Source: Yuukianura sp. NJ FZ-2021 (taxonomy: Eukaryota). Taken from it: a DNA stretch of 64,000 nt. The stretch covers positions 15,190,001 through 15,254,000 of the forward strand of contig CM102290.1 in NCBI GenBank assembly GCA_046563655.1, written 5' to 3'. This document shows positions 4,001 through 59,281 of this stretch, one piece after another. A program made the position numbers and the translations under genes. The stretch's first letter is position 1. Each line of letters opens with the position of its first letter. Under the pieces are notes generated by a model. The model saw nothing but the letters and a program-made list of their open reading frames with translations, had not been told where the DNA came from and ran no database searches.

Positions 4001-4380
4001 ATGTCATATGAATGTCATATGAATGTCATATGAATGGCATACGAATGTCATATGAATCTCTTACGAATCTCATATGAATGTCATATGAATGGCATACGAA
4101 TGTCATATGAATCTCATACGAATCTCATATGAATGTCATATGAATGTCATATGAATCTCATACGAATCTCATATGAATGTCATATGAATGTCATATGAAT
4201 GTCATATGAATGGCATACGAATGTCATATGAATCTCATACGAATCTCATATGAATGTCATATGAATGGCATACGAATGTCATATGAATCTCATACGAATC
4301 TCATATGAATGTCATATGAATGTCATATGAATCTCATACGAATCTCATATGAATCTCATACGAATGTCATACGAATCTCA
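1079..4380. repeat. Tandem satellite, 11-bp unit GAAT(CT/GT/GG)CATA(C/T), about 300 copies
   Basis: Continuous array of gaatctcatac / gaatgtcatat / gaatggcatac variants; many units contain the palindrome TCATATGA. Confidence 0.99.
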
Positions 4381-10007: not shown

Positions 10008-10350
10008 TTTTAGTCTTCTGGAGACGCATGTCTACGACATGCTGAAGAAGACTATTGATACGACTTTGTCCGTCCCGTCCGTCCGTAACATTTTTAGGAC
10101 CATTTCCACTGAAACATAAGCCCCATCACAGTCGGGGGGTTATGTATGGCTCAAGTGTTTTTAGTAGGTCTACATTGCACTCAAAGTCGTACATTAACAA
10201 CGTAGAAGTGGGCGGCTACTTTACGTACCCGCAGTATCGTGGCTCCGCAAAACTGTTTTGGTTTCGATTCCACTCAAAGTATTTATAAACTACGGAGTTT
10301 TGATCCGGTCATTTTCTCGAAGTATGTTTAGTTACGTTGTTAAATTAAGA
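10008..10350 (+). mobile_element. Helentron/DINE-1-like element (family C)
   Basis: T-run, terminal stem-loop AGTCTTC..CATGTC-TAC-GACATG..GAAGACT, then (GTCC)n; a diverged inverted copy lies at 12698-13032. Confidence 0.7.
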
Positions 10351-10644
10351 CTGATTAGAATGTAGAAAATCCGGCTTAAATTCGCAACACGTAAACAGTG
10401 CATCACAAATCAATTCAAATTTGCATTCGCAAGAAATTTTTATAATTTTGATTTTACACAAGTGATTATTCGACTCTATTATAAAAAAAAAAAATAATAT
10501 ATATAATTATAATAATAATTATTATCCACTTGATTTAACACATGGTGCATAGCACGCAAAAAACAATTAAAAAACGGCTCGTGAGACTACCTTAGTAATG
10601 CGGTGTGTCTTTCTGTTTAGTTGCCTTGATATACATGTATTTAA

Positions 10645-12220: not shown

Positions 12221-12697
12221 TGTCTGAAAAAAATCAAAACATACGTCAATCAAAACGGATACACAGCATTGTCTTTATTTTCAGTGTTCAACCCTTACCT
12301 TCGGTTTTAACAAAAACACAACTTCACGTGGATCCCGATATTCGTTCTAATCACTTAATTAATGATTAATCGCAATTACTAATCGATTTACTAATCTGAA
12401 ACCTCCGAAGTAACAGGAAAACAGGAAAACACAAACAGAAATGACAAACAGAACAGATGACTCGGTTGGGGTAAGGATTAACGAACGTAATTGTAACCGC
12501 ACGGTTGAGTCACTCCAAAATATTAAGTGGCTACAATGAGTGGCTACCCTTTCGGCAACTTATGTTGCCACTTTATGTTAGGGTAGGCTAAAGTGGCTAC
12601 TTTAGCTGCCACTCTGGTGTAATTACCCATTGTAGCTACTTAAACAAGGTAGGGCGATGCTCAAGGGTTGAGCATTTTCTACCCTCTAGTAAGCACT

Positions 12698-13032
12698 AAA
12701 TTAACAACGTAATTAAACTAACTGTCAGAAAATGACCGGATCAAAACTTCGTTGTTGAAATATATTTTGAGTGTAATTGAAACCAAAACGTTTTCGGGAA
12801 ACGACAACACTGCGGGTGCGTAAAGTGTTCGCCCATTTCCACGCTGTTAATTTTAGAATTTTAGTGCAATGTAGACCTACCGAAAACATGTTGAGGATTA
12901 CATAACTCCCCGAACAAATTGTGGCTAATGTTTCAGCGCAAAAGATCCTAAGAAAGCGAACGGACAGACAGACAAAGTCGTATGAATAGTCTTCTTCAGC
13001 ATGTCTACGACATGTGTCTCCAGAAGGCCAGA
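12698..13032 (-). mobile_element. Helentron/DINE-1-like element (family C), inverted copy
   Basis: Reverse-complement similarity to 10008-10350 along its length (GAAAATGACCGGATCAAAACT, AGTGCAATGTAGACCTAC, AATAGTCTTCTTCAGCATGTCTACGACATG). Confidence 0.75.
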
Positions 13033-19827: not shown

Positions 19828-22800
19828 ATGAGTGGAAATCTGCCAACTTCGGAAGGAAACATGGGGAATGAGCACAGCCAGGATCCCGATGACACAGAGG
19901 GTAATGTCACACACTCCAACTTCATTCTGATTCTGTATCTGTACAATAATTGATGTTCTGCATGTCAATTTGAGATCATGGACATTCATCTGAGGACGAG
20001 AGCAGTGATGGGACTGCGGGTGACAACAGTTGTGACGATGGTTCTGATGACTCCCTCGATGGGACACTGGACAAGTGCCCCATTTGTCTCCGAGTATTTC
20101 GGCAGCAGGAAGTGGGAACACCAGATACTTGTGAACACTGCTTCTGCCTCAAGTGCATCATGGAGTGGGCGGAGGTAAGTCCACGACCACAACGTTTCTT
20201 CGATCCAGCTGACAAATTGAATGTTAACGTATATTTTCGTTTTTAGAACGTCACCACATGTCCAATTGACAGGAAGGTCTTTCACTCTGTCCTTGTGCTT
20301 GATAAAGTACGGGGTCATGTTGTGCGTGTACAAGAATTGAGTCCACCCACTCAACATGCAGATTACTACGATGATTTTTCTGATCCAACGTTCTGTGAAG
20401 TTTGTGGTTGTTGCGATCGAGAGGACAGACTGCTTCTGTGCGACGATTGTGACGATGGGTATCATTTGGAGTGTCTAGACCCCCCTTTGCACTCTGTTCC
20501 GGATGCAGATTGGTGGTGCCCCAACTGTTCAGCTGCCAGAGTACGAGTGAGTCAATTCAAAACTAAATTAGTCCGGATTGTATTTAAATTCATCCACAAA
20601 ACTTGTTTCCTAATGGTTTTGATGGTTTTAGACTCAAAGTAATCTGGACAATGCCAGTACTAGCAACACCTCAACTAGACCCCGATCCAGGATGCCAAGA
20701 ACGGGCCTCAGTCGACGCATTATGCAACGACGACGAAGGGACACTACTCTTGTGAACGTACGGCAAAATAATTATGATTCAAAGCAGTTGCAGGGTCGGG
20801 TAGTTTTTTTCGTTTCAGTGAAAGAAACTGAAATAAATGAAAAAAACTGAAAAATTGAAAGAAACTGAAAAAAAGTGAAATTAACTGAAAATTTCATCTA
20901 TGTTTTTTTCATTTCACTGAAACAAATTGAAAGAAAGTGAAAGAAATTGAAATATTGCATTGAAATATTTCAGCTTATCAGTGAAATAAATTAAAGAAGC
21001 TGAAAAGGTTTATTTCGTTTCATGTATTTTTCAGTTTTTTTTCAGTTTTTTTCATTTTTCACTGAAAAGTGAAATATTTCAGTTCTAACACTGGCAGTTG
21101 GAGTTAACGGAAAGTTTAAACTTTTGTAGCTCTGTTCACCTCACTCTGACGATTGTGAGACGGCGACTAGACGGCTAAGGTCAGAGTCCAGTTCTGCTGG
21201 AAGGAGCAGCAGAAGATCCGTTTCCCGAGGCAGGAGAAGAACCACCTCCAGACGAAATAAGTCAGCCAAAAGATGTCGAGGCAAGAAGAGACGGACTCGG
21301 AAACGTCGCGTTGCCAAGGAACGAAAGCCAGCGACATCGAGAGGGCGCTTGATTCAGCAGCTCGGAATTGTGCCGCCCAGACCAGGCCAAGTCTACGTTG
21401 GTCTTCCTTCCTGTCGACCTTCACACGCTCCCGTCCTGGAACCTACCACTTCTGCCTCTGCCATCAGAACACAACGACATCAGGCAGGAATTGCCCCACT
21501 TCGAATCTACTCTACAGTCAACGACTTGGCAGATTACTTTGAGGGGTGAGTGACCAACTTCTGTTTTAAATTAACATCAAAAACGTAAAATTGACGTTAA
21601 AAAACGTATTTTGATGTAGGAGTTCTGATGAGGAAGCGGGTGTGGGTGTGATGAGACCACAGGGAATGAGAATAAGCGACACTAGAAAGCGTGTTTTAGC
21701 TTCAGCTGCTGCCCACCAGTCGTCCAGTGCCAATATCCTTGGTCCAATTCTGAGTGGCCAACATATCCTCCTTCAAGACAAGAACATGCAAATCTCAAGC
21801 AGTGACGGAAGATTGGTTCCCTCTATTTCAGTGGATGTTGATAAGCTGCTCCTCTCTCCGAATCATGAGAATGACTCGAGTGGGTACGATTCCTTTGGAA
21901 ACAGGGGTTCCCCCGTGTCACGCAGACCAAACATCCTCACTTCAGCCATCACTTCTCCTGGCCAATCAGCTTACGAACCTTCTCGCTCTGGATCTTCCGG
22001 GGACTCCAGTGCTCAGAGTTCCAGTCCCAGCACTTCCAGCACTTTTAGAGCAGGATCTTCCAGTGGAAGTTACAACAATCCCAGTTCATCTTCCTACAAC
22101 CGTGGATCTGAGGATCCCAATGCTTTTGAGGATCTGAGTGGACTGGATGAGGCTGTGAAGTGTGCACAACGGAAGAAAGACAACTCAACTGAAAGTGACA
22201 AGGAAGAGGATGAGTTCAACATCTACAGTGACATCGAAGGTACAAAAACATCACTTTTTCATTTATTTACAAAATGCAACTAATATCTTTAGATTTAATT
22301 TGTGATTGTTTGTTTTAGATGATCCAAGACCCATAACGAGACGGAGTTTGGATGTGAGTGTGGGTGGTGACGTGGATACGGGGACAGTGGAATGTCTGAA
22401 CGATGGTGGCGGTGGGGCAGAGAGCGATGACGAAATGGTCATCGATGAGGCTGAGGCAGCCTCTGCTCAAGATCCAGACAAAAGAAGTGAAGTGGAGTCC
22501 ACAGTCCCATCTCAGTAAGCTTTTTCAAAATAAAAAAAAATGTAATTTTCATCCTTTTTACGAGCGCATATTTTTGATTAACTTTTAGGGGCCCCTTGAG
22601 GGCTCCCTACTTTCTTAAGGTGGTTTTCTATAAAAACTGATTCCACTTCTGATTTAAAAAAATATGCCCTTAAAAATCATGAAAATCACATTTTTTTTTA
22701 ATTTTAAGGGCCCTTAAATCGGGTGTTTGAAAAAAAAATACTATAAAATGTATTTCCAAAAGTACAGTCAGCATTCCAAAGGTTCAAAATTTTGAAAATG

Positions 22801-27480: not shown

Positions 27481-27760
27481 ATTATTGTCGATTTCAGCTG
27501 AGATCGGGGGTGGCGATTCGCTAGGGTTATTGTCGATTTTCAGCTGAGATCGGGGGTGGCGATTCGCTAGGGTTATTGTCGATTTCAGCTGAGATCGGGG
27601 GTGGCGATTCGCTAGGGTTATTGTCGATTTCAGCTGAGATCGGGGGTGGCGATTCGCTAGGGTTATTGTCGATTTCAGCTGAGATCGGGGGTGGCGATTC
27701 GCTAGGGTAATTGTCAATTTCAGCTGAGATCGGGGGTGGCGATTCGCTAGGGTAATTGTT
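27481..27760. repeat. 45-bp minisatellite, about 6 near-identical copies
   Basis: Unit TCAGCTGAGATCGGGGGTGGCGATTCGCTAGGGTTATTGTCGATT, just downstream of the PHRF1 AATAAA. Confidence 0.97.
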
Positions 27761-28180: not shown

Positions 28181-31100
28181 ATGGTTGTGGCGACATTTTG
28201 GGCGACATTTGTCATGTTGAGCCTCCTCGGAATTGAAGTGACCTCTGGTCAGGGCGACACCGTGGTCAACATTCGTGAGTTCATTTTGAGTTTAGATTCA
28301 AATCCGTTTGTCCATCAAAATGGCTGCCTCATGCAACGCATTATTCCGTGGAGACACAAAACACAAACAAAATCAAAAATTTAAAAAGAACCAACTCAAA
28401 ATGGCCTTGCATTTTAGTCGTCGAGGAATCCACGAATAGCATTTTCCCTTTTCCACAATTTTTTTGAAAAATGAAAATATTTTGGACACAAAAGTTGAGG
28501 GACCGATTCAAAAATCCTGACTTTTCTCCTCAAGTTTTTCATTTCACCACTTTGTAGATTCTGGTTTTAAAAAAATGTCCCACTTTTGACATGTTTGAAA
28601 TGATGATTGAAGTTTTGAATTTTCCAGTTTTCATTTACCAAGATGAAGAGTGGAGAAAGTTGTTTGATGAAACCGTGGCCAAGTACTTTTCGCACCATGA
28701 CCAAAGGAATCTCAAAATCAGGGTGGGGAGGGTCCATGCCTTTGATGCCAAGAAGTCCAGCGACTTTGACACGCTAGCCACAGAGTGTAAACATTCAGCA
28801 CAACCTATTTTTATGTAAATAGAATATAACTTTTCATGGTTTTCATAAATATCAATGTTTGTAGTTTGCAAATTCTACGAGGAGGCAATGGGAAGTGATG
28901 CGAAGCCGGACGTGGCCATTGATTTCACGCGAATCGGAACTCCGTCGGAAGCAGTCAAAATGGTTTTGAGAGCAATGCAAATGCCAACAATTGCAGGGAG
29001 TTTTGGACAGGAAGGAGACATCAAGTACTTTCACTCTCAATAATATTACTCTATTTATTTATTATTTTATATTAATTCCCTCTTAGAGAATGGCGTGATT
29101 TGAAGGATGATCAGCATAAGTTTTTGATTCAAATCTCTCCGCCGGCGGACGTTCTCATTCAATCCGTCCGATCGCTTGTAGAGAAGCAAGACATGACGAG
29201 TGCCGTCGTCCTGTTCGACGAGGACCAGTATGGTCAGTACTCCACATTTTCTAAATTTCAAGATTTAAAATTCAAAATTTTAAAATGTTGATTTTTAGAA
29301 ATGTACCACAAGTACAAAGCCCTCCTGCAGAACCTGCCCACTCGTCACCTTCTGACCAAGACAGAAACGAAAGTGGGTGAACTGCGGAAGCAGATTGATC
29401 ACTTGGTTCACGTGGACATTGTCAACTACTTCATCGCTGGAAAAGTGTCGCAGATCACACAAGTTGTCACAGAAGCGAGCAGGGAAAATGTAGAAGATGG
29501 ACCATACTTCAGCGACGAGTTTGCATGGTACTCCATGACCCTGGTAATTCAACACTTAATTGAAATAGTTAATTAAATATTTAATTAGCAAAAGTAATTG
29601 ATAGGTTCCTGGAGAGGAGGAGGTTCCACAGTGTGGTGAATGCGAAGTTGACGTGACGCTCATCCACGTCGTTCCATACGCAGTTCTGGAAATGACTAAC
29701 CCACGCAAAAGGTTCTTGAACCAAACGCTGGGCCCCACCCAAAACGACCCACTCTCACTCTCACACATGTTCTACTTTGACATTGCAGTGGACGCTGTCC
29801 TCGCAATCGGGTGAGACCTTGACCTCGCAAATTAAACACATTTTGAGAGCGGGAAATTGAAAAGTGTGTTTTAAAATTACAGACGCCTGAAGCAGCAGGG
29901 AAAGTACAAGGTGAGTGGTGTGAAGCAGACTTGTGGCTATGACCCCTTGACCAAGAAAGTGAAGGGATACAGTGGAGTGACCTTGGACCTCCTGAAGGAA
30001 TTGAGGAGTGTTGCAGTTGCAGGTCAAAACATGGTGAAGTTGAGGCTGGACAGGGAAGGGAAGCCGGGCAAGAACTACGCCGAGGTCAAAGCCAACATCT
30101 ACCGTCTCGTGTACGACGCCAAGCAGGCAAAGCCCAGGACCAAGGACAGGATCGGCTATTGGACGGCAGATTTCGGATCCACGGAGAGCAGGCAGCTGAG
30201 GATTCAGAATGAAACGCAGCTAGCGGCACACAGGGCCTACACTGTCTTCAGAATAGTCACTGTCGTCGTAAGGGCAAAGGTCAAAGGTCACTCATCATGG
30301 ACTAAACATTTCCTTTTTTTAAAAGCAAGCCCCATTTGTGATGGAATTTGAGAACTGCTCCACCAAGGGGAAGGGGAACAAGTACAAGAACTGTTTCTAT
30401 GGTTACTGCATTGACCTCCTCCACAAGATCACAGAAGATCTCAAGTTCAACTACACGATTCGAGCAGTGGAAGGGTATGGCTACATGAACGACTCTGCAC
30501 CACACAACTGGGACGGAATGGTCCTACAACTGGAGAAGAGGGTACATCTTTTCAAAAGGAATCCAATTTTCTAATCAAATCTAAAACAAAATTTATGTAT
30601 TTTGAAAATTGTCTTTAGAAAGCTGACATCGCTCTTGGTGCGATGTCGGTAATGGCAGAGCGGGAAAGTGTGGTTGACTTCACTGTGCCTTACTATGACC
30701 TCGTAGGAATTTCAATTCTTATGAAAAAACCAAGAGTTCCAACATCACTTTTCAAATTTCTGACCGTACTCGAAAACGAAGTGTGGGGATGCATCTTGGG
30801 AGCATACTTTTTTACCAGGTAGTTTTTGAAAAACTTAAAAGCGTTTACAAAAAAAAAAACCTTTTTTTAAATGTTTCACAAACGTTTATTACAAAAAAAA
30901 ACGTTCCTTAAATGTTTTTAGCTTCATTTAAAAAAAAGCGTTTGTTAAACGCTTATTACAAAAAACGTTTTCTTTAGATTCATTACAAAAAACGTTTCTT
31001 AAAAACGTTTTCTTTAGATTCATTACAAAAAACGTTTTTAAACGCTCTTTTTAGATTTATTACAAAAAACGTTTACAAACGTTTTTTTAGACTCTTATGT

Positions 31101-32599
31101 TTTGAACAGTTTCCTGATGTGGATATTTGACCGTTGGAGTCCTTATAGTTACCAGAACAACCGAGAAAAGTACGAGGACGACGAGGAGAAGCGAGAGTTC
31201 AACCTGAAGGAGTGTCTGTGGTTCTGCATGACTTCCCTGACTCCGCAGGTACTTATACTGCCAGCACATACTGCCAGCACATTGTAGTGGAAGTATTTGT
31301 AGGGTGGAGGTGAGGCTCCGAAGAACCTGTCTGGTCGCCTGGTGGCAGCGACTTGGTGGCTCTTTGGCTTCATCATCATCGCCTCCTACACCGCCAACTT
31401 GGCAGCCTTCTTGACGGTCTCTCGCTTGGACGCTCCAATTGAGTCGCTCGACGATCTGAGCAAGCAGTACAAAATCCAGTACGCTCCTATGCGGGGCAGC
31501 GGAGCTTGGATTTACTTCAACAGAATGAAAAATATAGAGGCACGCTTCCATGAGTAAGATTTTGGAGAGTGAAAGTGTGAAAATTTGTGATTTTGAAGTA
31601 TTTTTGTACTTTTGAGTATTTGGAGGAACATGACGTTGAACGAAAGTCTGAGTGCACTTGAGCGTGCTGAGATTTCTGTGTGGGAGTATCCGGTGAGTGA
31701 CAAGTACACGAGGATGCTTGCAGCGATGGAGGAGAATGACCCACCGTGGAATTTCACATCAGCGATGGAGAAGGTCCGAGCAGTGAACAACGACTCGAGC
31801 AAGGACAGAGATGGATTCGCTTTTCTCGGTGACTTTTTAACGTGGACGGAAGGAATAACTTTGTCACTGTTTAAAAGAATGAAGTGTCAAATTTTTAAAA
31901 TGTAGATGAGGCGACGAACGTGCGATGGCAGACGACGATCAGTTGCGACTTTGACCAGAAGGGGGAGGAGTTTTCTCGGAAGCCGTATGCAATCGCAGTG
32001 CAGAAAGGCTCTCCTTTGAAGGAATCCATTTCACACATGTAAGAATGAGCTAAAAGTTCAAACAGAAAGTGGATTTCCATTTTGAAATGTTTGTCTTTGT
32101 TGAGGATTTTGAAACTGCTGAATCAGCGCACACTGGAGCAACTGAAGGAGAACTGGTGGAGCAACGCCACTTACAAGGTCGTATGTCCAAAAGAGGACAA
32201 CCAGTCTGACGGAATCAGCATTCACAACATTGGTCAGTTTCACTTGTTCCAAATTTTATTTTTGGAATTTTTGAAAAAGTTGTTTGAAAATGTTTTTGAA
32301 ACTGTAGGTGGAGTGTTCATTGTGATTTTTGTGGGGATAGTGATGGCTTGTTTCACTTTGATTTTCGAGTACTGGTGGAACAGGAAGAAGAATCGGACGG
32401 AGGAACTGGGAGACCCACCATCCTCCAACCAATTTACATCCACTGTCCCACCGTCCCCACCGGAAATGGAGAGAGCAAACTTCAACACTCAATACGACAA
32501 GTAAAAGTCACTCTCTTTTTCAGGGTTCAAAATTAATTTGAATCTTTTTGCAGACCACCGGAACGTATTGTGTTGCCATCCGTTGAGAATTGCTGGTAA
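28181..32599 (+). CDS. Ir25a: Ionotropic co-receptor IR25a paralogue 1 (most derived S2), 16 coding exons
   Basis: Signal peptide, ATD ([14 protein letters not shown]), S1 [78 protein letters not shown]4 [11 protein letters not shown]; open through all exons. Confidence 0.93.
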
Positions 32600-33251: not shown

Positions 33252-36200
33252 ATGCAATTCCCAGCATCACTTTCAGTCGTAGTCACTTCACTCACGTTTG
33301 TCCTCGCAATTGGAGTGACCAGAGCAGCACAAGAAGATGACACAGTTGTCAACATCCGTAAGACTTTTTTCAACGTCGCATTTTAAAATTATTTTCAGCT
33401 AGGAAATCTCAATTGTTCACTTTCTACAATTTGAAAGTTTCAATTTAAAAGAAAAATGGAACGCCAAAGTAGTCTGTTTGAAGGTTTGTGCATTGTGTTT
33501 ATTAAGAATTCAAAGGAAAATGGAATCGTGACTGAAAGTCGGAGAGGAAATTGGGCAGCATATTGGCACATTTCCCAATTTCATCCAAATTGTTCCATGG
33601 AATTTCACTATAATGGCACGAAATTGGACAAGCTCATTCTAGCGTCTCATTTTTTGAAATTCCAATTTAACAAATTTTGAACAAAAAACTTTGAATTCTT
33701 TCAGTTTTCATTTCGCAAGACTTGGAGGGGAAGATGCTATTTGAAGCTGCTCAAAAGTACTTCAAGGACACTCCTAATTTCAAAATCAAAATCGGGAAAG
33801 TTCATTTGTTCGATGCCAACTACAACGACTCTGTCAAACTAACAACCGCATGTAACTTTGTCATTTTGTTTCAAAATTATAAAAATGACTCTAGATTAAA
33901 AGTTGGCCTGTTTTGTAGTTTGCAAGGCGTACGATGATGCGATGACAAGCGGAGACAAGCCGGATGTGGCCATTGATTTTACGAGATCCGGAATTGCGTC
34001 AGAGGGCGTGAAGATTGCACTTGCAGCGATGCAAATGCCAACGATTGCAGCCACTTTTGGACAAGAGGGAGACATCAGGTAAACTTTTAGTTCTTTTAGT
34101 TTTTGAAGTGATGTGTAAAATTTAATTTGTGGACAGAGAGTGGCGTGGGTTGAACGACGCACAGCAAAAGTACTTGATCCAAGTGTCTCCGCCGGCGGAT
34201 GTGCTCATCCAAGCAGTGCGCTCAATCGTCGAGAAACAAAACATGACGAGTGCCGTCGTCATGTTCGACGAACAGCAGTACGGTAAGTCCTCACACTTTC
34301 ACTTTGACCTTTGACCTCAAAAAGTTAAGAATTTGAGTTAAATTGTGAACTTTGTTTAGAAATGTACCACAAGTACAAGTCTCTTCTGCAGAACATGCCG
34401 ACACGCCACCTTCTGACCAAAACGGAAACTGCTCCTGACAAATTGGCCTCGCAAATCGATCGGCTGGTTCACGTGGACATTGTCAACTTTTTCATTGCGG
34501 GGAACACTGAGCAGATCACAGAAGTCATCTCCATTGCGAGCAAGGAGAAGGCCAAGGACGGACCGTATTTTTCTGATGAGTTTGCGTGGTACTCCATGTC
34601 ACTCGTAAGATCCAAACTCACAAATAATTGGACTCCCGCCCTTTCCGTCTAAAACGAAACGGACTTTCCTTTTTTCCGTTTCCGTTTTTTGAATTTTTTT
34701 TGAAACGGTACCTTTCGTTTCGTTTCCGTTTTCGCCAAAAAACAAAACGAAAACGAAAATCAAAAGACGGAAAAACGGAAAGCAGAAAAACCGGAGAAAA
34801 TGTTCCTTTTTTGCGACACCCCGTACTGAAATTTTGGGAAATTAAAAATTAAACTTTAAATTTATAGTTCATCCAAACTATTTTTCCATAGTTGGAATAA
34901 CAAGAAGTGGATTTTTGAAAAGCAGAACATGAAATCTAATTTTTGAAATTTCATTATCAGTCAACCGCTTTACCGTTTTGAAAACGTTTTTCATTCCGTT
35001 TTGCCTCCTACCGTTCCGTTTCGTTTCCGTTTTTAGGAAAAAAAAAACGAAACGCACGACGGCCGCCCTAACAAATACATGAATATTAAAAAGTGAAATG
35101 GAAATGACTTTGAGTTTGTAGGTGCCTGGAGAGTTGAAACTGCCGCAGTGTTCTCTGTGCGACGTGGAAGTGTCGCTGGTCCATCTTGTTCCTGACCCCA
35201 TTCCCATCGGAAACACACGCAAAAACTTCCTCACAGGTCAAATCAAGACGAATGACCTCTCTCTGACTCAGATGTTCTACTTTGACATCGCAGTCGACGC
35301 CATTCTGGCAGTTGCGTAAGTGCATCTCAAAATGTCAAGGTGGCCTTTGACCTTGAGCTGTGTTTGCAGGTCCATGAAGAAGTCGAGCTTGTACAGCCTC
35401 AACAACGACAACAACAGTTGCAAGCTGTATGCGAAGGACAGCAGACTGCCTGCCTACCCCACACTCAAGCTGGACTTGCTGGAGGCATTCCGAACTGCGA
35501 GTGAGGACAACGGAGTGCCGTTTCACTTGGAGGGCAAAACAGGAAGGAACTACCCCGAATTCAGCGTCTCCATCAAGCGACTCACGTACGAACCACACAA
35601 AGCAGCTCCCAAGTCAACAGAGTTCATCGGAAAGTGGACTGCAGGCTTCTCGGAGGGGAATCTCATCCAGTACGACAAGGGCAAGGACTTGGTCGCACAC
35701 ATGGCGCACACTGTCTTCAGAATTGTCACCTACGTCGTAAGTAAGGGGAGTAAATCCGGATTTTTGACGGATTCGGATTCTTCTAAATCCGGATTTCAAA
35801 AAAATGGAACACGGATTTTGACGGATTTTTGAATCCGTTTGAGGGTACAGACAATTGAAAAATTGACGCCAAAAACTGAAAAATTGAGTTTATATAAAAA
35901 AATGTTTTTCAAATTAAGTTAATCAAAAAGTAACATTCCTGAAATCCACTATGAACTTTTTTTGGTACTTGGAGTTTAAAGCCAACGTTGTTCATAATTT
36001 TGAAAAAAAAACTAAACAAATTGTTATTAGGAAATACTATGTGTATTCTAAAATCCGGATTTAAATTCGGATTTTTTTAATAAAAATCCGTCAAAATCCG
36101 AAATCCGGATTTCGAGAAAGACGTGACGGATTTACAACCCTAGTCGTAAGCCAACTCCACTCGCACTTTGGCCTTTGACCTTTCTCTTTTCAGCAACCAC

Positions 36201-38221
36201 CTTTTGTGATGGAACTGAAGAACTGCAACTCGAGTGGGAAGGAAAACAAGTACAACAACTGTTTCTATGGTTACTGCATTGATCTCCTGGAGAAGATCAA
36301 AGCAGAACTCAAGTTCAACTACACCATTCGAGCAGTGACTGATGGCTATGGCTACATGAACGACAGTTATCCACATGAGTGGAACGGAATGGTCAGAGAA
36401 CTCAAGGACAGGGTCAGAAATTTAACAGAAATTTTTAGAAATTTGGTTTGTTTCAAAATGAATTTGAGATTTTCAGAGAGCGGACATTGCCCTTGGTGCG
36501 ATGTCGGTAATGGCAGAGCGGGAAAGTGTGGTTGACTTCACTGTGCCTTACTATGACCTCGTCGGAATTTCAATTCTTATGAAAAAACCGAAAATTCCGA
36601 CGTCACTTTTCAAATTTTTGACGGTCCTTGAAAACGATGTGTGGATGTGCATTTTAGCAGCTTACTTCTTCACAAGGTTCTGCTTCAAACAAACTTTTTA
36701 AAAATTTGTTCTGGTCAACGTTTCAGGAATATTTTCTAAAAAGTTACGTTTTGAACAGCTTGCTGATGTGGATATTTGACCGTTGGAGTCCTTATAGTTA
36801 CCAGAACAACCGAGAAAAGTACGAGGACGACGAGGAGAAGCGAGAGTTCAACCTCAAGGAGTGTCTGTGGTTCTGCATGACTTCCCTGACTCCGCAGGTA
36901 CTTATACTGCCAGCACATACTGCCAGCACATTGTAGTGGAAGTATTTGTAGGGTGGAGGTGAGGCTCCGAAGAACCTGTCTGGTCGCCTGGTGGCAGCGA
37001 CTTGGTGGCTCTTTGGCTTCATCATCATCGCCTCCTACACCGCCAACTTGGCAGCCTTCTTGACGGTCTCTCGCTTGGACGCTCCAATTGAGTCGCTCGA
37101 CGATCTGAGCAAGCAGTACAAAATCCAGTACGCTCCGATGAAGGGCAGTTCAGCCTGGATCTACTTTGACCGCATGGCGCACATCGAACACCGCTTCTAC
37201 GAGTAAGTTCCTCAGAAATGGACTGATGAACTGATGAAATGAACTGATGACTGATGTAGGATTTGGAAGGACATGAGTTTGAATGACAGCATGAGTGACT
37301 TTGAGCGGTCGCAACTCGCAGTGTGGGACTACCCGGTGAGCGACAGATATACGAAGATGTGGCAGGCAATGATGGAGAACAGTCCGCCCGACAACTTTAC
37401 AGAGGCGGTGGATCGAGTGCGAGCTGTGAACCACAACGACTCTTCCAAGGAGAAAGATGGATTTGCGTTTCTCGGTAAGTGTGCGACCGGAAGCGGGAGT
37501 ATAGGAGTCAAAATGACGAAAGACTGTTTGTTGTTTGCAGGAGATGCGACTGACATTCGATTCCAAGTGCTTACAAACTGCGATTTGCAGATGATCGGAG
37601 AAGAGTTTTCTCGCAAACCGTACGCTCTAGCTGTACAGCAGGGCTCGCCACTCAAAGACCAGCTCAACGACGCGTAAACTATTTGCTTGTTTGACCTCAG
37701 CCAGTTCAAAAGTTGAGTTTATTTTTGTGTTTTTAGGATTTTGAAGTTGTTGAACCAGCGTTACTTGGAGCAACTGAAGGAGACGTGGTGGAACGAAAAC
37801 AAGCTGAAGGTGAAATGCGAGAAGGACGACAACCAGTCGGACGGAATCTCCATCCACAACATTGGTCCACTCAATTTCATAATTTTGAAATGTTTTTTGA
37901 ACATGTTTTTGAAAATATTTTGACTGGTAGGTGGTGTGTTTATTGTAATTTTCGTGGGGATTGTGATGGCGTGCATCACTCTTCTGTTCGAGTACTGGTG
38001 GTACAGGAAGCGCGGTGTTGTGCAGGAAATGCGAGAGATGCCACTCCCTCCGTCCAAGGAGTTTGGGGCAACCCCACCCATCGACAAAACAAACTTCAAC
38101 ACTCAATATGAAAAGTAAGCCTTAACTTATTTTCCACTTTTCAGTTTTTAGTTGATTTCTTTTGGTTCTTAGACCAGGAGCAGAGAAGACAAGTTTACCA
38201 TCAATTGACAACGCCTGGTAA
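33252..38221 (+). CDS. Ir25a: Ionotropic co-receptor IR25a paralogue 2 (canonical LBD), 16 coding exons
   Basis: Same exon structure; retains the canonical [20 protein letters not shown] and [38 protein letters not shown]. Confidence 0.96.
34628..35070. mobile_element. hAT-like MITE (AAACG-rich) in intron 5 of IR25a-2
   Basis: Ends in GCCCTA; AAACG/CGTTT subterminal repeats; flanked by ACAAATAA / ACAAATAC (7 of 8); orthologous introns in copies 1 and 3 are only about 60-70 nt. Confidence 0.7.
35742..36142. mobile_element. hAT-like MITE (ATCCGGA-rich) with perfect 8-bp TSD GTCGTAAG at an IR25a-2 exon/intron junction
   Basis: TAAGGGGAGTAAATCCG ... CGGATTTACAACCCTA; GTCGTAAG at 35734-35741 and 36143-36150. 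Confidence 0.9.
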
Positions 38222-38915: not shown

Positions 38916-41900
38916 ATGGTGCCTTGGGTGGGGGTGAGTGGTCTCCTGCTCCTCACTTTGACCTCCACTTTTCACTTAGCTTTTGGTCAGAAGGATGAAG
39001 TTGACCTCAACATTTGTAAGTTCTCAAACTACATTTATCCCTTCACAAAATCACTTTTTCAAAAACTTGAAACAGAATCTTTAAACTTGGGATTTTTTGT
39101 TCTAATTGTGAAACCTTGTGAAAGAATGTGTTTGTACTTACGTTAGTTAGTTAACTAGCGTGGCATTAGATTAGTAGAATTTTCTTTTGAAAAGAGTCAA
39201 GTAGGCTTCATTTTGAGTAAAACCAAGATGGCGGAGAGGGAAGCGTCCAAGGTTTTCCATGGACACGGACAAATGGCATCACAATTAAAAATTCAACGAA
39301 ATTTGAAATGTGTCGCAAACATTGGGGGTTTTAGATTGGCGTGACACTTATTGGCAGTTGCTTATGGCAAGTCATCAAACTTCGTCTTAACCAACACGAC
39401 ATCTCAAACATCATGACTTTTTCAATTTTCCAAAAATGTACCATTTTGAGAAAATTTTTATTCCATTCACCTCTCCTTGTATTTGTCTAAATCATAGTCA
39501 AGTTTCAATTTTCAAAAGGTGGAAACTGTTGAAAATGAAAAGTTTACCTTCTATTTCAATTTCAAAATATGAGTTTGGAAATGTATGAAACTTTTTGTTT
39601 TTAGTTTTCATTTTCCAAGAAGCCCATTTGAAACCGCTGCTTGATCATGCTGTCAAATTTGCAACTGAAAAACTGGGCGTGAAGGTAGGGAAAGTCCACG
39701 AATTTGACGCCAACTACAATGACTCTCTCAAGCTCACTAATGCTTGTAAGCAACTTTTCCAATTTCAAAAAAAAAGTTTGAAAAGTAGGATTGTATAAAA
39801 AGGAAGCGTACTTATTTGTTAGTCTGCCAAAAGTACGGTGAGGCGATGAGTGGGCCGAACAAGCCTCACATTGCCATTGATTTCACTCGAATTGGAATTC
39901 CGTCAGAGGGCGTCAAAATCGCACTTGCGGCCATGCAAATGCCAACGATTGCAGCAACATTCGGACAAGAGGGAGACATCAGGTATGAATTCACGGTTTC
40001 CGGTCACTCATGGACGGATATTTGTGGACGGTTTTTAACGCAGTGCAATAATGTCCATTCCGTCCATTTCTGTCCACCCGTCCATTTGTGTCTGTAAGTG
40101 GAAAAGTTGGGTGATTCCTAAGTTTGATTTTGCAGATCCTGGCGTGACTTGAACAAGAAGCAGCAAAAGTACTTGATCCAAGTGCCCCCTCCGGCAGACG
40201 TCATCGTCCAGTCAGTGAGGACGATTGTGGAGGCCATGGACATGACGAGTGCTGTCCTCATGTTCGACCCAGACCAATACGGCAGGGATTGAATAAAATA
40301 TATAAAATAATTATACAGAATTATATTTTGATGGAATGATATTACAATGACTTTAGAGATGTACCACAAGTACAAGGCTCTGCTGCAGAACCTGCCGTGT
40401 CGCCATTTGCTGAGCAAGACAGAGACGGAAGTGACTAAACTGCAAGGACAGATCTATCGACTGGTGCATGTGGACATTGTCAACTACTTCATCGCAGGAA
40501 AGGCTGCTCAGATCACAGAAGTCCTCGCAGCAGCCTCCAAGAGAGACGCCGCAGATGGACCCTGGTTCTCCGATGAATTTGCATGGTACTCCATGACACT
40601 CGTAAGTCACTCCCTTGACCTCCAGGTCACCGCTTGACCCCTACAGGTCAACACTTTTGTCTCTCTTTTCCAGACGCCGGAGGAACCCTTTCCCACATGC
40701 AAGTACTGCGAAATCGAGGTCACTCTCGTCCACATGCGTCCCAAACCAATTCCGTCCAACAGACGCAAGGAATTTCTGCACGAAGCCCTCAAACCCACCA
40801 TCCTCTCTCTCACTCACATGTTCTACTTTGACCTCGCAGTGGACGCCATCATCGCAGCCAAGTAAGCATGGACGGCAATGGACGGATCTTTATGGACGGA
40901 TTTTTATCCACGACACAAACGCCACTTTCCTCCCTCAAATATCCAAATTGTCCACAAAGATCCGTACAAAAGCGTCTACTTTAAAAATTAAGCTGAAAGA
41001 GTGTAAACTTGGAAATGTTTTTAGCCAATTGAAGAAAGAGGGCAAGTACGACAATCTGCGACTGGACAGGAACAACTGCACGGCTTACGACGCAGGCGTC
41101 AAGGGAGGTTTTGACGCTCACGACTTGAACCTGTTTCCGGAATTCCAAAAGGCAGCAAAGGACAACATGCTCAAATTCCACTTGGAAAGTGGACTCCCCG
41201 GCAAAAACTACCCCACCTTTGAGCTGGAGATGGTTCGCCTCAACTACTCCACCAACAAAATAGACGGAGTGAGGGACAATATCGGGACTTGGAAGGCGGG
41301 ATTCGACACTCCGCAGAAACAACTCTCCTTCGAAAAGGGCAAGGACCTGGACAATCACAGGGCGCACACCGTCTTTCGAGTCGTCACTTACGTGGTAAGT
41401 CCAAGGGCAAAGGGCTCTCTAACAAGTACTTGATTGTTTCCACTTGGGACAGCAAGAGCCGTTCGTGTTCTACAAAGAGGGATGCAACAACTCTGGAAGG
41501 GAGAACAAGTATGTCAACTGTTTCTATGGTTACTGCATTGATCTCCTGGAGAAGATCAGAGAAGATCTCAAGTTCAACTACACCATAAGGAATGTGTCTG
41601 ATGGGTATGGGTACATGAACACGTCGGAACACGATCCAGACCACAAGTGGAACGGAATGGTCTTAGAACTCAAGGAGAGGGTACCACTTTCCCAAATTTA
41701 CATTTTCATTTCAATTTCAGTTTTCAATTTCAAAATTTGGTTTGTTACAAATTGAATTTGTTGAGTTTTTCAGAGAGCTGACATCGCTCTTGGTGCGATG
41801 TCTGTGATGGCAGAACGGGAAAGTGTGGTTGACTTCACTGTGCCCTACTATGACCTCGTAGGAATTTCAGTCCTCATGAAAAAACCAATAGTGGAAACGT

Positions 41901-43529
41901 CACTTTTCAAGTTTCTAACAGTACTGGAAAATGACGTCTGGATGTGCATTTTAGGCGCCTACTTCTTCACAAGGTTTCAATTTTTACAAGAGTTGGTTTG
42001 AACAAAGTTTAAAAAACGTTTCAACTTCTTTTTAAAACGTTCAGTTTCCTGATGTGGATATTTGACCGTTGGAGTCCTTATAGTTACCAGAACAACCGAG
42101 AAAAGTACGAGGACGACGAGGAGAAGCGAGAGTTCAACCTGAAGGAGTGTCTGTGGTTCTGCATGACTTCCCTGACTCCGCAGGTACTTATACTGCCAGC
42201 ACATACTGGCAGCACATTGTAGTGGAAGTATTTGTAGGGTGGAGGTGAGGCTCCGAAGAACCTGTCTGGTCGCCTGGTGGCAGCGACTTGGTGGCTCTTT
42301 GGCTTCATCATCATCGCCTCCTACACCGCCAACTTGGCAGCCTTCTTGACGGTCTCTCGCTTGGACGCTCCAATTGAGTCGCTCGACGATCTGAGCAAGC
42401 AGTACAAAATCCAGTACGCTCCGATGAAGGGCAGTTCAGCCTGGATCTACTTTGACCGCATGGCGCACATCGAACACCGCTTCTACGAGTAAGTTCCTCA
42501 GAAATGGACTGATGAACTGATGAAATGAACTGATGACTGATGTAGGATTTGGAAGGACATGAGTTTGAATGACAGCATGAGTGACTTTGAGCGGTCGCAA
42601 CTCGCAGTGTGGGACTACCCGGTGAGCGACAGGTACACGAAGATGTGGCAGGCAATGATGGAGAACACTCCGCCTGAAAACTTTACTTTTGCCGTGGAGC
42701 GAGTTCGGGGAGCCAATAAGAGTCAGGCGGAGAAGGAGAAGGACGGATTCGCTTTTCTTGGTCAGTCATTGCTTAAAATTGTAAAAACATTTGACATTAC
42801 TTTGAGAACTGATTTGGAAATTGGATTTTGAAGATGAGGCGACGAATATAAAGTGGCAGACGGTGATCAGTTGCGACTTTGATCAAAAGGGGGAGGAGTT
42901 TTCTCGGAAGCCGTACGCAATCGCAGTGCAGAAAGGCTCTCCTTTGAAGGAATCCATTTCACACATGTAAGAATGACCTAAAAGTTGAAAGAGAAAGTGG
43001 ATTTAAATGTCTGTAGTTGTGTATTTGTTTAGGATTTTGAAGCTGTTGAATCAACGTTACTTGGAGCTGCTGAAAGAGAACTGGTGGAACAATGCCACTT
43101 ACAAGAAGCAGTGTCCAAAGGAGGAGAATCAGTCCGATGGCATCAGCATCCACAACATTGGTACTTTCAAATTTGTAAAAAAAAGGATGAAATTTGTTAA
43201 TTTTGAATGTTGTAGGTGGTGTTTTCATTGTGATTTTCGTGGGGATTGTGATGGCTTGTTTCACTTTGGTGTTCGAGTACTGGTGGTACCGCAAGAGAAA
43301 CGTGAGTGAGGAATTGGCAGAGATGGCTCTGCCTCCACCCAAGGAATTTGGATCCACCTTCACAACCACGCCTGCTCCAACCATCGAAAAAACCAACTTC
43401 AACACGCAATACGACAAGTAAAGAAAAAAAAACACTTTTTCATTTTGTGGAATTGTGCTCAAAAGTGTAACTTTTATTTGTAGACCGCCCGAGCGCACCA
43501 CTCTGCCATCCATTGAGAATGCTTGGTAA
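38916..43529 (+). CDS. Ir25a: Ionotropic co-receptor IR25a paralogue 3 (mosaic S2), 16 coding exons
   Basis: Same exon structure and motifs; intron 4 needs a GC donor (40282); ends LPSIENAW*. Confidence 0.93.
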
Positions 43530-44170
43530 AATGGAGTCTGTGCAGAAAGAGAAAGTGGAGCACTGGACTCCTTTCTCCATTTTAGCTTACGTTAAGCATT
43601 GCATTACAAGTTGGGTTCCTTACTTTGTGCTACGGACACACACTTTTCTTTAGTTAATCCACTCCACATTCCCTTCACCTTTGGAATTAGGCGAATCTTG
43701 ACAAAATAAAAACATCTCTCTTCTTTCATTACAAATTCAACTTTACTTTTATTACAAAAACCAATATAACTCTGTCACCATTTGATCCTTAACTTTTAAA
43801 TTTTACAGCCTCCAATGTTAGGGTACCTACAAATTAGTTGTAACAAATGAAAGTTATACCAATTCAACTTCAAAATAATTTGCCAGCACAGAAGTCTTAC
43901 ATTTTGACTTTCCTCAGTTTGTTTTCCAGCCAAAACTAATTATTAATCATACCAAAAGTCATGAAAATGTAATAAAAAGTAATGAAAGTATAATAAGAGT
44001 ATTGAAGTGAAAAGAGAAGTGGGTTGGTGGGTACAAGGGAGTCCTTACTTCAACCAAAAAGTAGCACACTGTAGTGAGACCAATTTTAAAGGGGAATTGG
44101 TTGGAGCAAAGTTCACAGGAGCTGAGACTGCTGTTGAAAGAGCATTCCAACTTTTTAGAAAAAGTGTCGC

Positions 44171-44417: not shown

Positions 44418-47325
44418 ATGTCCGACGAAGAAGAAGTCTACTCGTAAGTGTCCAAATTATTCTTCTCCTTTCACAAATCCCCTCTTTCTAACAACTTCCA
44501 AAGTTCAAAGTTCAAAAAGTGAAAAGCGGACAGAGGAATGCGTGTAACTTCTTTAGCATCCTTGCTCAAAGTTTTTTTTTAAATCTCCCTGTGAGCTAGG
44601 TCTTACTTTCGTTTGAAAATTTGTTCCCAAACATTTTTAAAAGAATTTTGATGGAAAGTTTTGAGGAATTTGGGTTAATTTTGGGTGTAAAGTAAATGGC
44701 GGTTGAAAAAGTTGAAGAAGGTGAGGGATGTGGCTGGGCTGAAAGCGTTTTGCGTCTGGCGTTGTTCCAGGCCCCGAGATGGCCCAGTGCTCCACACTAA
44801 ATTTAGACTCTGTCAAAATGATGAGTGTTCATTCCACTGACAAAGGAAATACTTGAACAGCATTCAAATGTGTCTCTGGAACCACGTTCTGTGCCTCTCT
44901 CCTCTTGACCTTTCACTTTTACACTCTTTTTACATCCACATTTCAAAAACAGAAACTAGTTTGGAATTGTGAATTTGTGTGGTTTGAATTGCAGGGAAGA
45001 GGAGGCGGAGGAAGCGTAAGTCAAAAACTAAAACACATTTCCAGTTCAAAGGTGGAAATTGCAGCGGGGATTTGGTTCAATTTATGTTCTACTTTTTTGT
45101 CTGTCACTTCCAGGAAGTAAGCCCCCACTTCATGAGTCTTAGACAAAGAAAACGTTATGATCTTATAACATTTCCAAACCCAAAACTTGGAATTTTAACT
45201 CACTTTTTTAAATTCAAAGTTTTCACAATTTTTGAATTTTCCAATTGCTATTACTCTCATTTTTGAAAACTTAAGGACAAGAGACCATGAGCCAATTTTT
45301 TGTTGAATTAGTGGATAGACTTGTAGCAGTTTGTTCAAAAAATGATACAACTTTCTTTTTGTGGACAAGGAAAAGGGAAAGGTCTATCCACACTTTTTTT
45401 GTAGAAATGCAAGAGTAATTTGGAGTTGAGACGTAACGATGTTGGGTGTAACCTGAGTTTAACGAAGCCTAACTAAGAGAGTAACTAACACTTTGACGTT
45501 GTTAATTAACGATTTGTTAAACGTACGTCTTTGAAGGGAGGAGCCGAAGGGAGGAGAGGCAGAGTTTCTCAAGGTAACACTGGAAACACTTTGGACAAGA
45601 GAAGAGTGTAATTCAATTTGAAATTCCAGAGACAGCAACATTCGCGTTCTGACTTGGATGAGCAACTGAAGGTGAACTGAAAACGTGAAATGAAATGTAA
45701 AAATATCGAATTGTGTAAAAGTGACTGTTTTGTTGTAACTCAGGAGTACATTTTGGAGTGGAGACGACAGCGGTCGAAGGAGGAGGATGAGTTGAAGAAG
45801 TTGAAGGACAAGCAGGCTAAGCGGAAGGTATGATTTCCTTTAATTTGAAATGGAGGTTGACTCCTTTGTGTTGTAGACACTGCGTGAGCAAGAGGAGAAG
45901 CGACTGGCTGAGAAGAAGAAGGCGGAGGATGAGCGTCGCCTGCGTGAGTTGGAGGAGAAGAAGCAGCGCGAGCAGGAGGAGAAGCTGCGTCGCCTGGAGG
46001 AGGCTGAGCGGAAGCGGCAGTTGATGCTGCAGGCGCAGAAGGTGCTGTGCTTGAGTCAATTGCTTGATCAACAGATGATGAGAGTGTGATTGTTTAGGCG
46101 AGTGTGGGGGGGAAGCTGAGTTTGCAGCGAGATGGGACGGACGACGTAAGTTGTGTCAATACTTAGAGTTGAGCAGTGCTAAGTGTTTTGGTGTAAAAGA
46201 TGCTGGGCATGGGAGATGCTCGAGCGGAGTTGAACAAGACGAAGGAGCAGTTGGAGGAGGAGAAGCGGATCTCCATGAGTTTCCGCATCAAAGCACTGGA
46301 CGTGACTGGGTTGTCTGCGGATGCGTTGAAGAAGAAGGCGCAGGAGTTGTGGGACCATGTCGTAAGGCTGGAGACGGAAAAGTACGACTTGGAGGAACGC
46401 CAGAAACGACAAGACTACGACGTAACTCCTCACTTGGAAACGAAGTAAACGCTTGTTAATCGTTTGTTTCGTTGCAGTTGAAGGAGTTGAAGGAGCGGCA
46501 GAAGCAGCAGTTGAGACACAAAGCGATGAAGAGAGGGCTGGACCCAGAGTAAGTCCACTCATTTCCACCATTACAAGTTAGGAATGTGTACTTTGTAGCA
46601 TTTGAATTCCAGGGCACTCACAGGGAAGTATCCAGTAAGTTCCAGCATTTTGACCTAAATTGAAACAGAGGTGAGTACAAATGAACTGTTTTCAGCCCAA
46701 GTTGCAAGTGGCTTCCAAGTATGAAAGAAGAGTGGACACGAGAACGTACGGAGACAAGAAGAACCTGTTCGAGGGTGTAAGTTCCAGTTTAATTCCACAC
46801 TTAATTACTATATCATCAACTATTAGTTAATTATATAATAAATATTTATAAATATTCAGTAATTAACACTCAAAAGGTCCTTGGAACTGTTGTTTTTTAG
46901 GAACTGGAGAAGCTGAGCAAGGAGACGAATGACAAGCAGTGGGCGGAAACCCTCAAGACGTTCGACGGCAGACAAAAGAGTGAGTTGACCTCATGCTCTG
47001 ACCTTTGACCTTGACATTTCCACAACATTTGAATGTGCTTTGCAGCCAAACTGCCGAAGTGGTTCGGAGAGCGACCTGGAAAGAAGAAGGGAGAAGCAGA
47101 CTCCCCGGAAGAGGAAGAGGTCAAGGTCAGCCACTCACTATACAAATATTAGTACAAAATATTATACTATAAAATATTACATTTTAATTCAAATATTACA
47201 AGGACGCTGGCCTCCCTGACTCCCTCCTTGTCTTTGATGAGGCCAACTTTGAAGCGGAGGCAGAACCAGAACCAGAAGCTGAGGAGGAGGAGGAGGAGGA
47301 AGAGGAGGAGGAGGAGGAGGAGTAA
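44418..47325 (+). CDS. TnT: Troponin T (protostome type with C-terminal poly-Glu tail), many small exons
   Basis: MSDEEEVYS|..EFLK|RQQHSRSDLDEQLK|EYILEWRRQRSKEEDELKKLKDKQAKRK..LETEKYDLEERQKRQDYD..GLDPEALTGKYP|PKLQVASKYERRVDTRTYGDKKNLFE..LPKWFGERPGKKKG..E14*. Confidence 0.97.
44797..44806. promoter_or_regulatory. Candidate intronic MEF2 site in troponin T
   Basis: Perfect CTAAATTTAG in the long first coding intron; motif plus context only. Confidence 0.45.
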
Positions 47326-58462: not shown

Positions 58463-59281
58463 TATGGAGGGATATTAGTAGCTAAACTAATTAAACTTTT
58501 TCCCCGCCAGTTAAAGTTTCTCCAATTAAAAGGTTGCCCTTTCGCCAATTAAACAAAATTAATCTAAATAATCAATAATCTAATATATAAATAATTATTT
58601 AATAATTATATAATAATTATTATATAATATCATTATATTATAGGCAGTGTTAGAACTGAAATATTTCACTTTTCAGTGAAAAATGAAAAAAACTGAAAAA
58701 AAGTGAAAAATACATGAAACGAAATAAACCTTTTCAGCTTCTTTAATTTATTTCACTGATAAGCTGAAATATTTTAGTGCAATATTTCAATTTTTTTCAC
58801 TTTTTTTCAATTTGTTTCAGTGAAATCAAAAAAAACATAGGTGAAATTTTCAGTTAAATTCACTTTGTTACAGTTTCTTTCAATTTTTCAGTTTTATTCA
58901 TTTATTTCAGTTTCTTTCACGGAAACGAAAAAAACTACCCGACCGTTAAATATATACAACACTGATTATAGGTTAGGTAGGTATTATTATATTAATATTA
59001 TTATACTAGCTTAATTTAATTTACAGAATGATTAAAATAAATATGACATAATTTGGGTGCCATTATATAACATATGCCCGGTATCACCCTTGAGTATTTT
59101 TGTGAAATCTATTGGGAAGAAATCTTACGTTTACCCGATTAACTTTTCACCGACTTAGTGCCAGTTAAAATGGATTTTTTTTTGCCAATTAATTAAATTG
59201 GCCAAAGTTAACCTTTTTTAATTGGGGAAACTAGTTAGTGGGGAAAAATGTGATTAGTTTTGCTACAAATATCCCTCCATA
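58463..59281. mobile_element. About 820-bp element with about 90-bp imperfect TIRs, possible TA TSD
   Basis: TATGGAGGGATATTAGTAGCTAAACTAAT..TTTTTCCCC versus GGGGAAAAA..ATTAGTTTTGCTACAAATATCCCTCCATA. Confidence 0.75.
58645..58947. mobile_element. MITE family D, second copy, nested in the TIR element
   Basis: Reverse complement of 20791-21093 with scattered substitutions. Confidence 0.9.

Follow-up and report, generated by a model that had tools for sequence, protein, structure and literature searches.

Evidence for interlocus exchange among three tandem predicted IR25a genes of a springtail, with two old versions of one ligand-binding exon

Introduction

Interlocus gene conversion between tandem paralogues is known from many multigene families, and IR25a is a highly conserved co-receptor that is usually present in a single copy. 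For the expansion of the IR family, non-allelic homologous recombination was invoked by Croset et al. (2010; PMC2924276), and in the available part of that text IR25a is the most conserved IR and the orthologous groups hold mostly one gene per species. Four IR25a paralogues are reported from the dipluran Campodea augens (PMC6938034), in an account whose available part makes no mention of conversion or of mosaic ligand-binding exons, and the Holacanthella genome paper, in the portion available, notes an IR25a orthologue only (PMC5644144). In the partly accessible literature on springtail IR25a and on IR gene conversion, we found no description of the present locus or of an exon 13 in two versions.

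The locus analyzed here is similar to known cases of interlocus conversion in its short near-identical tracts, which include introns and synonymous sites, in its diverged flanks and in its conflicting trees. It differs from the usual cases in that the exchange lies within IR25a and in that one ligand-binding exon has been left in two old versions, hereafter called A-type (canonical) and B-type. As in Campodea augens, more than one IR25a gene is found in an early-branching hexapod. The third gene of the array also resembles Allacma fusca P0002, a partial protein whose C-terminal part is IR25a, with 98% identity over exon 11 and with the same arrangement, in one gene, of a canonical first half of S2 and a B-type exon 13. 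Unlike the third gene, however, P0002 stays outside the clade formed by the three genes for exons 2-9, and in exon 13 it shares 75% identity with the third gene.

Results

Three tandem IR25a genes

The window, which is the whole 64-kb stretch of DNA that was analyzed, carries on its + strand a tandem array of three IR25a genes, each complete with 16 exons and all with the same intron positions (copies 1 to 3, Table 1). The gene models were built from tblastn alignments of the Folsomia IR25a protein P0004 together with splice sites, and in the tblastn alignments each copy spans at least residues 46-949 of P0004, including the long amino-terminal domain. The ligand-gated ion channel domain motif is present in all three copies in the protein alignment, and exon 11 of copy 3 matched Pfam PF00060 (Lig_chan) with an E-value of 1.4e-19 (70.8 bits, cut-off 30.8). 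The proteins closest to exon 11 were Allacma fusca P0002 (98%), Orchesella cincta P0003 (95%) and Folsomia candida P0004 (92%), which points to a springtail genome; the named entries among the 120 exon 11 matches listed were mostly called IR25a. According to the exons 2-9 tree, which comprised IR25a proteins alone, the three copies fall inside the springtail clade (support 100/100). By domain, full-length collinearity and tree placement, copies 1, 2 and 3 are assigned to IR25a, and they appear to be old tandem paralogues of this predicted co-receptor.

The copies differ in the two halves of S2 of the ligand-binding domain. In copy 1 the first half is fast-evolving (derived) and exon 13, which encodes the second half, is B-type; in copy 2 both halves are canonical; and in copy 3 a canonical first half is followed by a B-type exon 13. 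The division into canonical and derived states, introduced by the first-pass annotation from the three copies, agrees with outgroup IR25a proteins.

Among the 45 introns of the three genes, 44 are GT-AG. The exception is intron 4 of copy 3, which starts with GCAGGG (40282-40287) and is without GT from the homologous donor position to the acceptor at 40356, so that it would be either a GC-AG intron or a weakened splice site. Two introns of copy 2 are long, at 34605-35121 (517 bases) and 35737-36193 (457 bases), and one intron of copy 1 is 291 bases long (30819-31109) with an internal 40-base repeat at 30961-31091, against 54-93 bases in the other copies at these places.

Table 1. Coordinates of the three genes and of the tracts shared between them (positions in the window)
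Feature	Coordinates	Strand	Description
IR25a copy 1	28181-32599	+	16 exons, 970 codons; GT-AG introns, open frame
IR25a copy 2	33252-38221	+	16 exons, 960 codons; open frame
IR25a copy 3, mosaic copy	38916-43529	+	16 exons, 963 codons; open frame
Exon 9 tract, copy 1 = copy 2	copy 1 30634-30731 = copy 2 36492-36589	+	97/98
T1, three-way block	copy 3 42042-42422 = copy 1 31107-31487	+	380/381
T1 in copy 2	36763-37136, matching copy 3 from 42049	+	copy 1-copy 2 373/374
T2, copy 3 = copy 2	copy 3 42049-42667 = copy 2 36763-37381	+	615/619 identical (pairwise alignment)
Copy 2 counterpart of T1/T2	36763-37381	+	pairwise alignment
Copy 3-specific stretch between tracts	42668-42833	+	end of exon 12 + intron 12; holds the breakpoint interval
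T3, copy 3 like copy 1	42834-43004 (copy 1 31906-32076)	+	exon 13 + first 38 bases of intron 13
Copy 1 counterpart of T3	31906-32076	+	exon 13 + start of intron 13

Background divergence and site patterns

In most exons all pairs of copies have a background pS of 0.4-0.9, which is saturated, and intron identities outside the tracts are mostly near the shuffle level, the highest being 0.77-0.80. Of 877 informative coding sites, 317 group copies 2 and 3 (2=3), 284 copies 1 and 3 (1=3) and 276 copies 1 and 2 (1=2). Over exons 2-9 the three patterns were counted 197/178/232, and 1=3 was the lowest. Within exons 11-12a, 67 of 69 consecutive informative sites supported 2=3, with a run of 49 such sites, and in exon 13 the 1=3 pattern was found at 50 of 58 informative sites, with a run of 24. 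When the order of sites was shuffled, either run was reached in 0/20000 trials, and the same was found for the descent of 62 and the ascent of 87 in a 3SEQ-like walk (0/20000 shuffles). These patterns correspond to ((2,3),1) for exons 11-12a and ((1,3),2) for exon 13, the conflict between trees that had been predicted in the first pass.

Signal for further tracts outside exons 10-13 was weak, with p = 0.03 in a chi-square test over exons and runs of 8 occurring in 167-341 of 5000 shuffles. Exon 9 holds a tract in which copies 1 and 2 are identical except for one of 98 bases, and therefore exchange between copies 1 and 2 seems to occur too. In intron 4, identity between copy 1 (29233-29298) and copy 2 (34283-34359) is 52/66 versus approximately 0.48 in shuffles, and 1=2 sites are in excess in exon 4 (23 vs 14 and 9); the two together may represent an older tract of copies 1 and 2.

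A tract shared by copies 2 and 3 and a block common to all copies

The first-pass annotation had described an almost perfect match of copy 3 (42050-42666) to copy 2 (36764-37380), including an intron, in a region where copy 1 is different, and three-way MAFFT and pairwise alignments reproduced it as tract T2. No difference at all is found over 42210-42632 (423 bases). T2 extends from exon 10 through introns 10 and 11 and the exon between them to position 42667 in exon 12, corresponding to the first half of S2. Between copies 2 and 3, 0 of 252 sites differ in exon 11 (pS 0) and 2 of 121 in exon 12 up to 42667. Intron 11 is identical at 57/57 positions between these copies, versus 36/57 between copies 3 and 1.

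T2 starts inside T1, a block of 381 bases that is approximately 99.7% identical across all three genes. T1 runs from exon 10 through intron 10 into exon 11, of which it takes in the first 185 bases. Its coding part specifies the pore and M3, a region that hardly varies in protein sequence among the aligned arthropod IR25a proteins. For exon 10, pS is 0-0.04 in all pairs and copies 1 and 3 have 0/138 differences; intron 10 is identical at 54/54, 53/54 and 53/54 positions in the pairs; and the exon 11 part up to 42422 has 0/185 differences in every pair. Purifying selection or constraint alone was considered as the cause of tract identity and is ruled out by the identity of synonymous sites and introns.

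Intron 10 (42184-42237 in copy 3, and the same in copies 1 and 2) contains a 13-base unit twice in tandem. Through the only private change of copy 3, G at 42209, the second unit matches the first in inverted orientation (CTGCCAG / CTGGCAG). A contig from run X4, described below, has a third 13-base unit inserted behind 42189.

A tract shared by copies 1 and 3, and the stretch before it

Exon 13 of copy 3 (42834-42966; copy 1 counterpart 31906-32038) and the start of the following intron match copy 1 and not copy 2, and this observation of the first pass was also reproduced. Exon 13 of copy 3 differs from that of copy 1 at 11/135 codon-aligned sites, versus 58/135 for copy 2, and pS is 0.22 between copies 1 and 3 and 0.79-0.90 in the other pairs. 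The core of the tract, 42865-43004 in copy 3 and 31937-32076 in copy 1, is identical at 134/140 positions. Intron 13 as a whole is identical at 55/66 positions between the two copies; the likeness extends over the first 38 bases (35/38) and then stops. Divergence between copies 1 and 3 is lower for exon 13 (11/135) than for exon 14 (26/126; Fisher p = 0.004), and the same was observed for third positions (6/45 vs 16/42, p = 0.013). With a pN/pS of 0.05/0.22 between copies 1 and 3 in exon 13, the B-type exon appears to be under purifying selection.

The mapped tract edges are 42422, 42632, 42667 and 43004, and the breakpoint interval, the mapping of which had been proposed with the original observation, lies within the stretch between T2 and T3. 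Here copy 3 resembles neither of the other copies: the coding differences are 26 for copies 1 and 2, 36 for copies 1 and 3 and 30 for copies 2 and 3 out of 89, and intron 12 identity between copies is approximately at shuffle level. In exon 12b, copies 1 and 2 share a short, weakly supported run of states against copy 3, and the unconverted exon 12b of copy 3 retains 'RVRG', as in other springtails, where copies 1 and 2 share another state.

Trees and the age of the exon 13 versions

For exons 2-9 (565 columns), the three copies form one clade (100/99) without internal resolution, and Allacma P0002 is outside of it. The exon 13 tree, which is based on 45 residues only, is different. Copy 2 is placed with Orchesella and Folsomia, and copies 1 and 3 join the fragments P0121 and P0122 (96/93), then Allacma P0002, P0123 and P0012. 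A clade of the three copies is rejected for exon 13 (cost 38.9 log-likelihood units, AU p = 1.2e-5). Conversely, exons 2-9 reject both the grouping of copies 1 and 3 with P0002 (p = 7e-5) and that of copy 2 with Orchesella and Folsomia (p = 8e-8). The trees of exons 2-9 and of exon 13 are thus in significant conflict. Exons 14-16 group copy 1 with copy 3 (96/91).

By these trees exon 13 exists in two ancient versions, with the A-type in copy 2 and the B-type in copies 1 and 3, P0002 and P0121-P0123. Because the two versions are ancient and the B-type is shared with other springtails, exon 13 has a history that differs from that of the 5′ two thirds. The first-pass annotation had called the exon 13 of copies 1 and 3 derived. 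It does differ from the canonical exon, but it is an old springtail variant, found in Allacma fusca and in the fragments, and did not arise newly at this locus.

The derived first half of S2 in copy 1 is another matter. The exon 12 tree gives a weak group of the three copies (88/99), in which copy 1 has a long branch, and a grouping of copy 1 exon 12 with the fragments P0121 and P0122 had p = 0.37 in the AU test. A word-based, and therefore weak, search with this exon gave canonical insect IR25a alone, with identities of 51-54% (2 matches in 24 candidates). The derived state looks like the result of fast divergence within copy 1.

Read support at the junction

Contigs from public runs were compared with 41400-43600. 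Runs X1-X3 are DNA runs of one sample, possibly the source of the assembly, and X4 has another organism label and belongs to another study. In X2, record 12 spans 42393-42855 with 1 other letter. Record 22 of X3, at 42591-42946, differs at 14 letters, has 3 gaps and represents a second haplotype of identical structure. Because independent contigs bridge the copy 2-like, the copy 3-specific and the B-type sequence, the junction from the first through the second into the B-type exon 13 is real in the reads, and copy 3 is not an assembly chimera at this point. X4 holds copy 3-type pieces at 42384-42604 and 42897-43055. The contigs are too short for the 619-base tract, and the linkage of the 5′ half of copy 3 to its 3′ half is given by the assembly alone.

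Contigs of X1 end at 42422 and 42632, which is where copy 1 and then copy 2 start to differ from copy 3. The depth of X1 contigs was 566 in the three-way part, 266 in the two-way part and 87-179 in unique parts, which fits 3, 2 and 1 copies, with the reservation that depth is not equal to copy number. Over 42423-42632, X1 and X2 are without variant letters and X3 has two variant contigs. In X3, two variant contigs are within 42384-42495 and intron 12 is divergent, and with such short contigs copy and allele are not separable. An X3 contig carries 12 substitutions and 2 indels in the 80 bases of copy 3 intron 12 (42747-42826) and one changed site in exon 13; this intron appears to be a very divergent allele.

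Discussion

Probable gene conversion and its alternatives

Sharp-edged near-identity in diverged paralogues, identity of silent sites and introns, and conflicting trees, by which gene conversion is recognized, are all found at this locus. We consider it very probable that they result from repeated interlocus (ectopic) gene conversion among the three copies, including copies 1 and 3, which are not adjacent. Because tracts are found in three-way form (T1), between copies 1 and 2 (exon 9), between copies 2 and 3 (T2) and between copies 1 and 3 (exons 10 and 13), all three pairings seem to have exchanged sequence, and at clearly different times. The three genes would swap short stretches in this way, and the exchanges would cluster around exons 10-11, where the conserved pore and M3 sequence may stay alike enough to pair and thereby seed conversion. 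From this conserved block, tracts may extend for varying distances into S2 of the ligand-binding domain. As for the order, the tract of copies 2 and 3 would be very recent (0 differences in 423 bases) and the three-way block recent, and the tract of copies 1 and 3 that spans exon 13 and enters intron 13, approximately 4-8% diverged, would be older. The tracts, their boundaries and statistical support, the conflicting trees and the read support at the junction are direct observations; conversion as their cause, its seeding and the order of events are inferred, and either member of a pair may have been the donor.

The same mosaic could be produced by the assembly itself, if paralogous reads were collapsed or mis-joined during assembly or polishing. 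Within a 5-kb tandem array, repeats of 381-619 bases that are 99-100% identical invite such errors, and the best-matching runs may be the assembly's own data. However, independently built contigs cross the junction in two runs, one of them as a divergent haplotype, X1 and X2 carry no variant letters over 42423-42632 (X3 has its two variant contigs there), and the copy 3-type pieces of X4 come from another study under another label, which makes an artefact very improbable. A single unequal crossing-over between a copy 2-like and a copy 1-like gene would also place two topologies side by side within one gene, and the tandem arrangement would allow it, but it demands uniform likeness to copy 2 upstream and to copy 1 downstream of one breakpoint. 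This is contradicted by the data. The halves differ in age (0 differences vs 8%), with copy 3 differing from copy 2 at 0/319 sites (exon 11 and second half) and from copy 1 at 11/135; copy 3 is not closer to copy 2 in exons 1-9; the copy 3-specific stretch of 42668-42833 separates the tracts; and several more tracts involve other pairs. We therefore regard a crossover origin of copy 3 as hardly credible.

Inheritance deserves more weight, although we judge it improbable as the whole explanation. Copies 1 and 3 may descend from an old B-type paralogue and copy 2 from a canonical one, with only one recent conversion, between copies 2 and 3 over exons 10-12a; the likeness of copies 1 and 3 in exon 13 would then be inherited and kept by constraint. 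The B-type exon is indeed common to other springtails, P0002 has the combination of copy 3, exons 14-16 also group copies 1 and 3, and exon 12b of copy 3 keeps the ancestral-looking 'RVRG' while copies 1 and 2 share another state. On the other hand, pS between copies 1 and 3 is 0.22 in exon 13 versus 0.67 in exon 14 and 0.79 in exon 12, the difference in divergence between exons 13 and 14 is significant, the likeness runs 38 bases into intron 13 before it ends, and exons 2-9, in which 1=3 is the rarest pattern, do not group copies 1 and 3. Inheritance of exon 13 is weakened by these results but may explain part of the signal: because exons 14-16 also group copies 1 and 3, some of their likeness in exon 13 may be due to descent from a B-type ancestor and not to conversion.

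Gene conversion among the three copies, including non-adjacent ones, had been proposed in the first pass as a shuffling of ligand-binding parts, and the tracts, trees and introns are in accordance with it. The combination found in copy 3 need not be new, as P0002 already has it, and the recent exchange of copies 2 and 3 may have replaced like with like, perhaps leaving the protein type of copy 3 unchanged. The mechanism is that of textbook concerted evolution and the general surprise is modest; the twist is an old exon dimorphism beside ongoing homogenization. For annotators and phylogeneticists it carries a warning, as whole-gene trees of the three copies are meaningless and each segment needs its own analysis.

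Possible consequences for the protein

Residues were compared by aligning Folsomia IR25a to GluK2 (8gc2_A). The 'LMEST' of GluK2 aligns with 'LGDAT' at the start of exon 13, and at the M-E position copy 2 has G-D and copies 1 and 3 have D-E. The glutamate of 'LMEST' is one that we take to contact the amino group of the ligand in GluK2. The A-T of GluK2 'DGATM' aligns with S-A in copies 2 and 3 and with G-A in copy 1.

A speculative and rather doubtful extension is that springtails keep the two ancient versions of exon 13, which would carry this acidic contact residue, by selection while conversion homogenizes the neighboring exons and recombines them with variants of the first half of S2, so that the ligand-binding domain of the co-receptor would be functionally diversified. 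If this were true, the ligand-binding domain of the IR25a 'co-receptor' would have diversified in ligand or in partner specificity. For the question of whether the ligand-binding domain of a co-receptor matters, the three copies offer domain swaps made by nature.

Neighboring features of the window

Directly upstream of copy 1, a tandem repeat of 45 bases is present in 6.2 copies (27482-27759, 98% matches). A 3.3-kb satellite array at 1079-4380 consists of approximately 300 copies of an 11-base unit, with higher-order periods of 44, 55 and 66 and 87-89% matches. Downstream of the IR25a array lies an exon of a troponin gene on the + strand (46197-46445; Pfam PF00992, E = 4.9e-11), beside which glutamate-rich coiled-coil exons are found around 45877-46086. 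Two 300-base sequences at 20794-21093 and 58645-58944 form an inverted pair with 95% identity, 37 kb apart, and are probably mobile-element copies. Another inverted pair, weaker at 79% identity, is located at 10015-10370 and 12674-13026.
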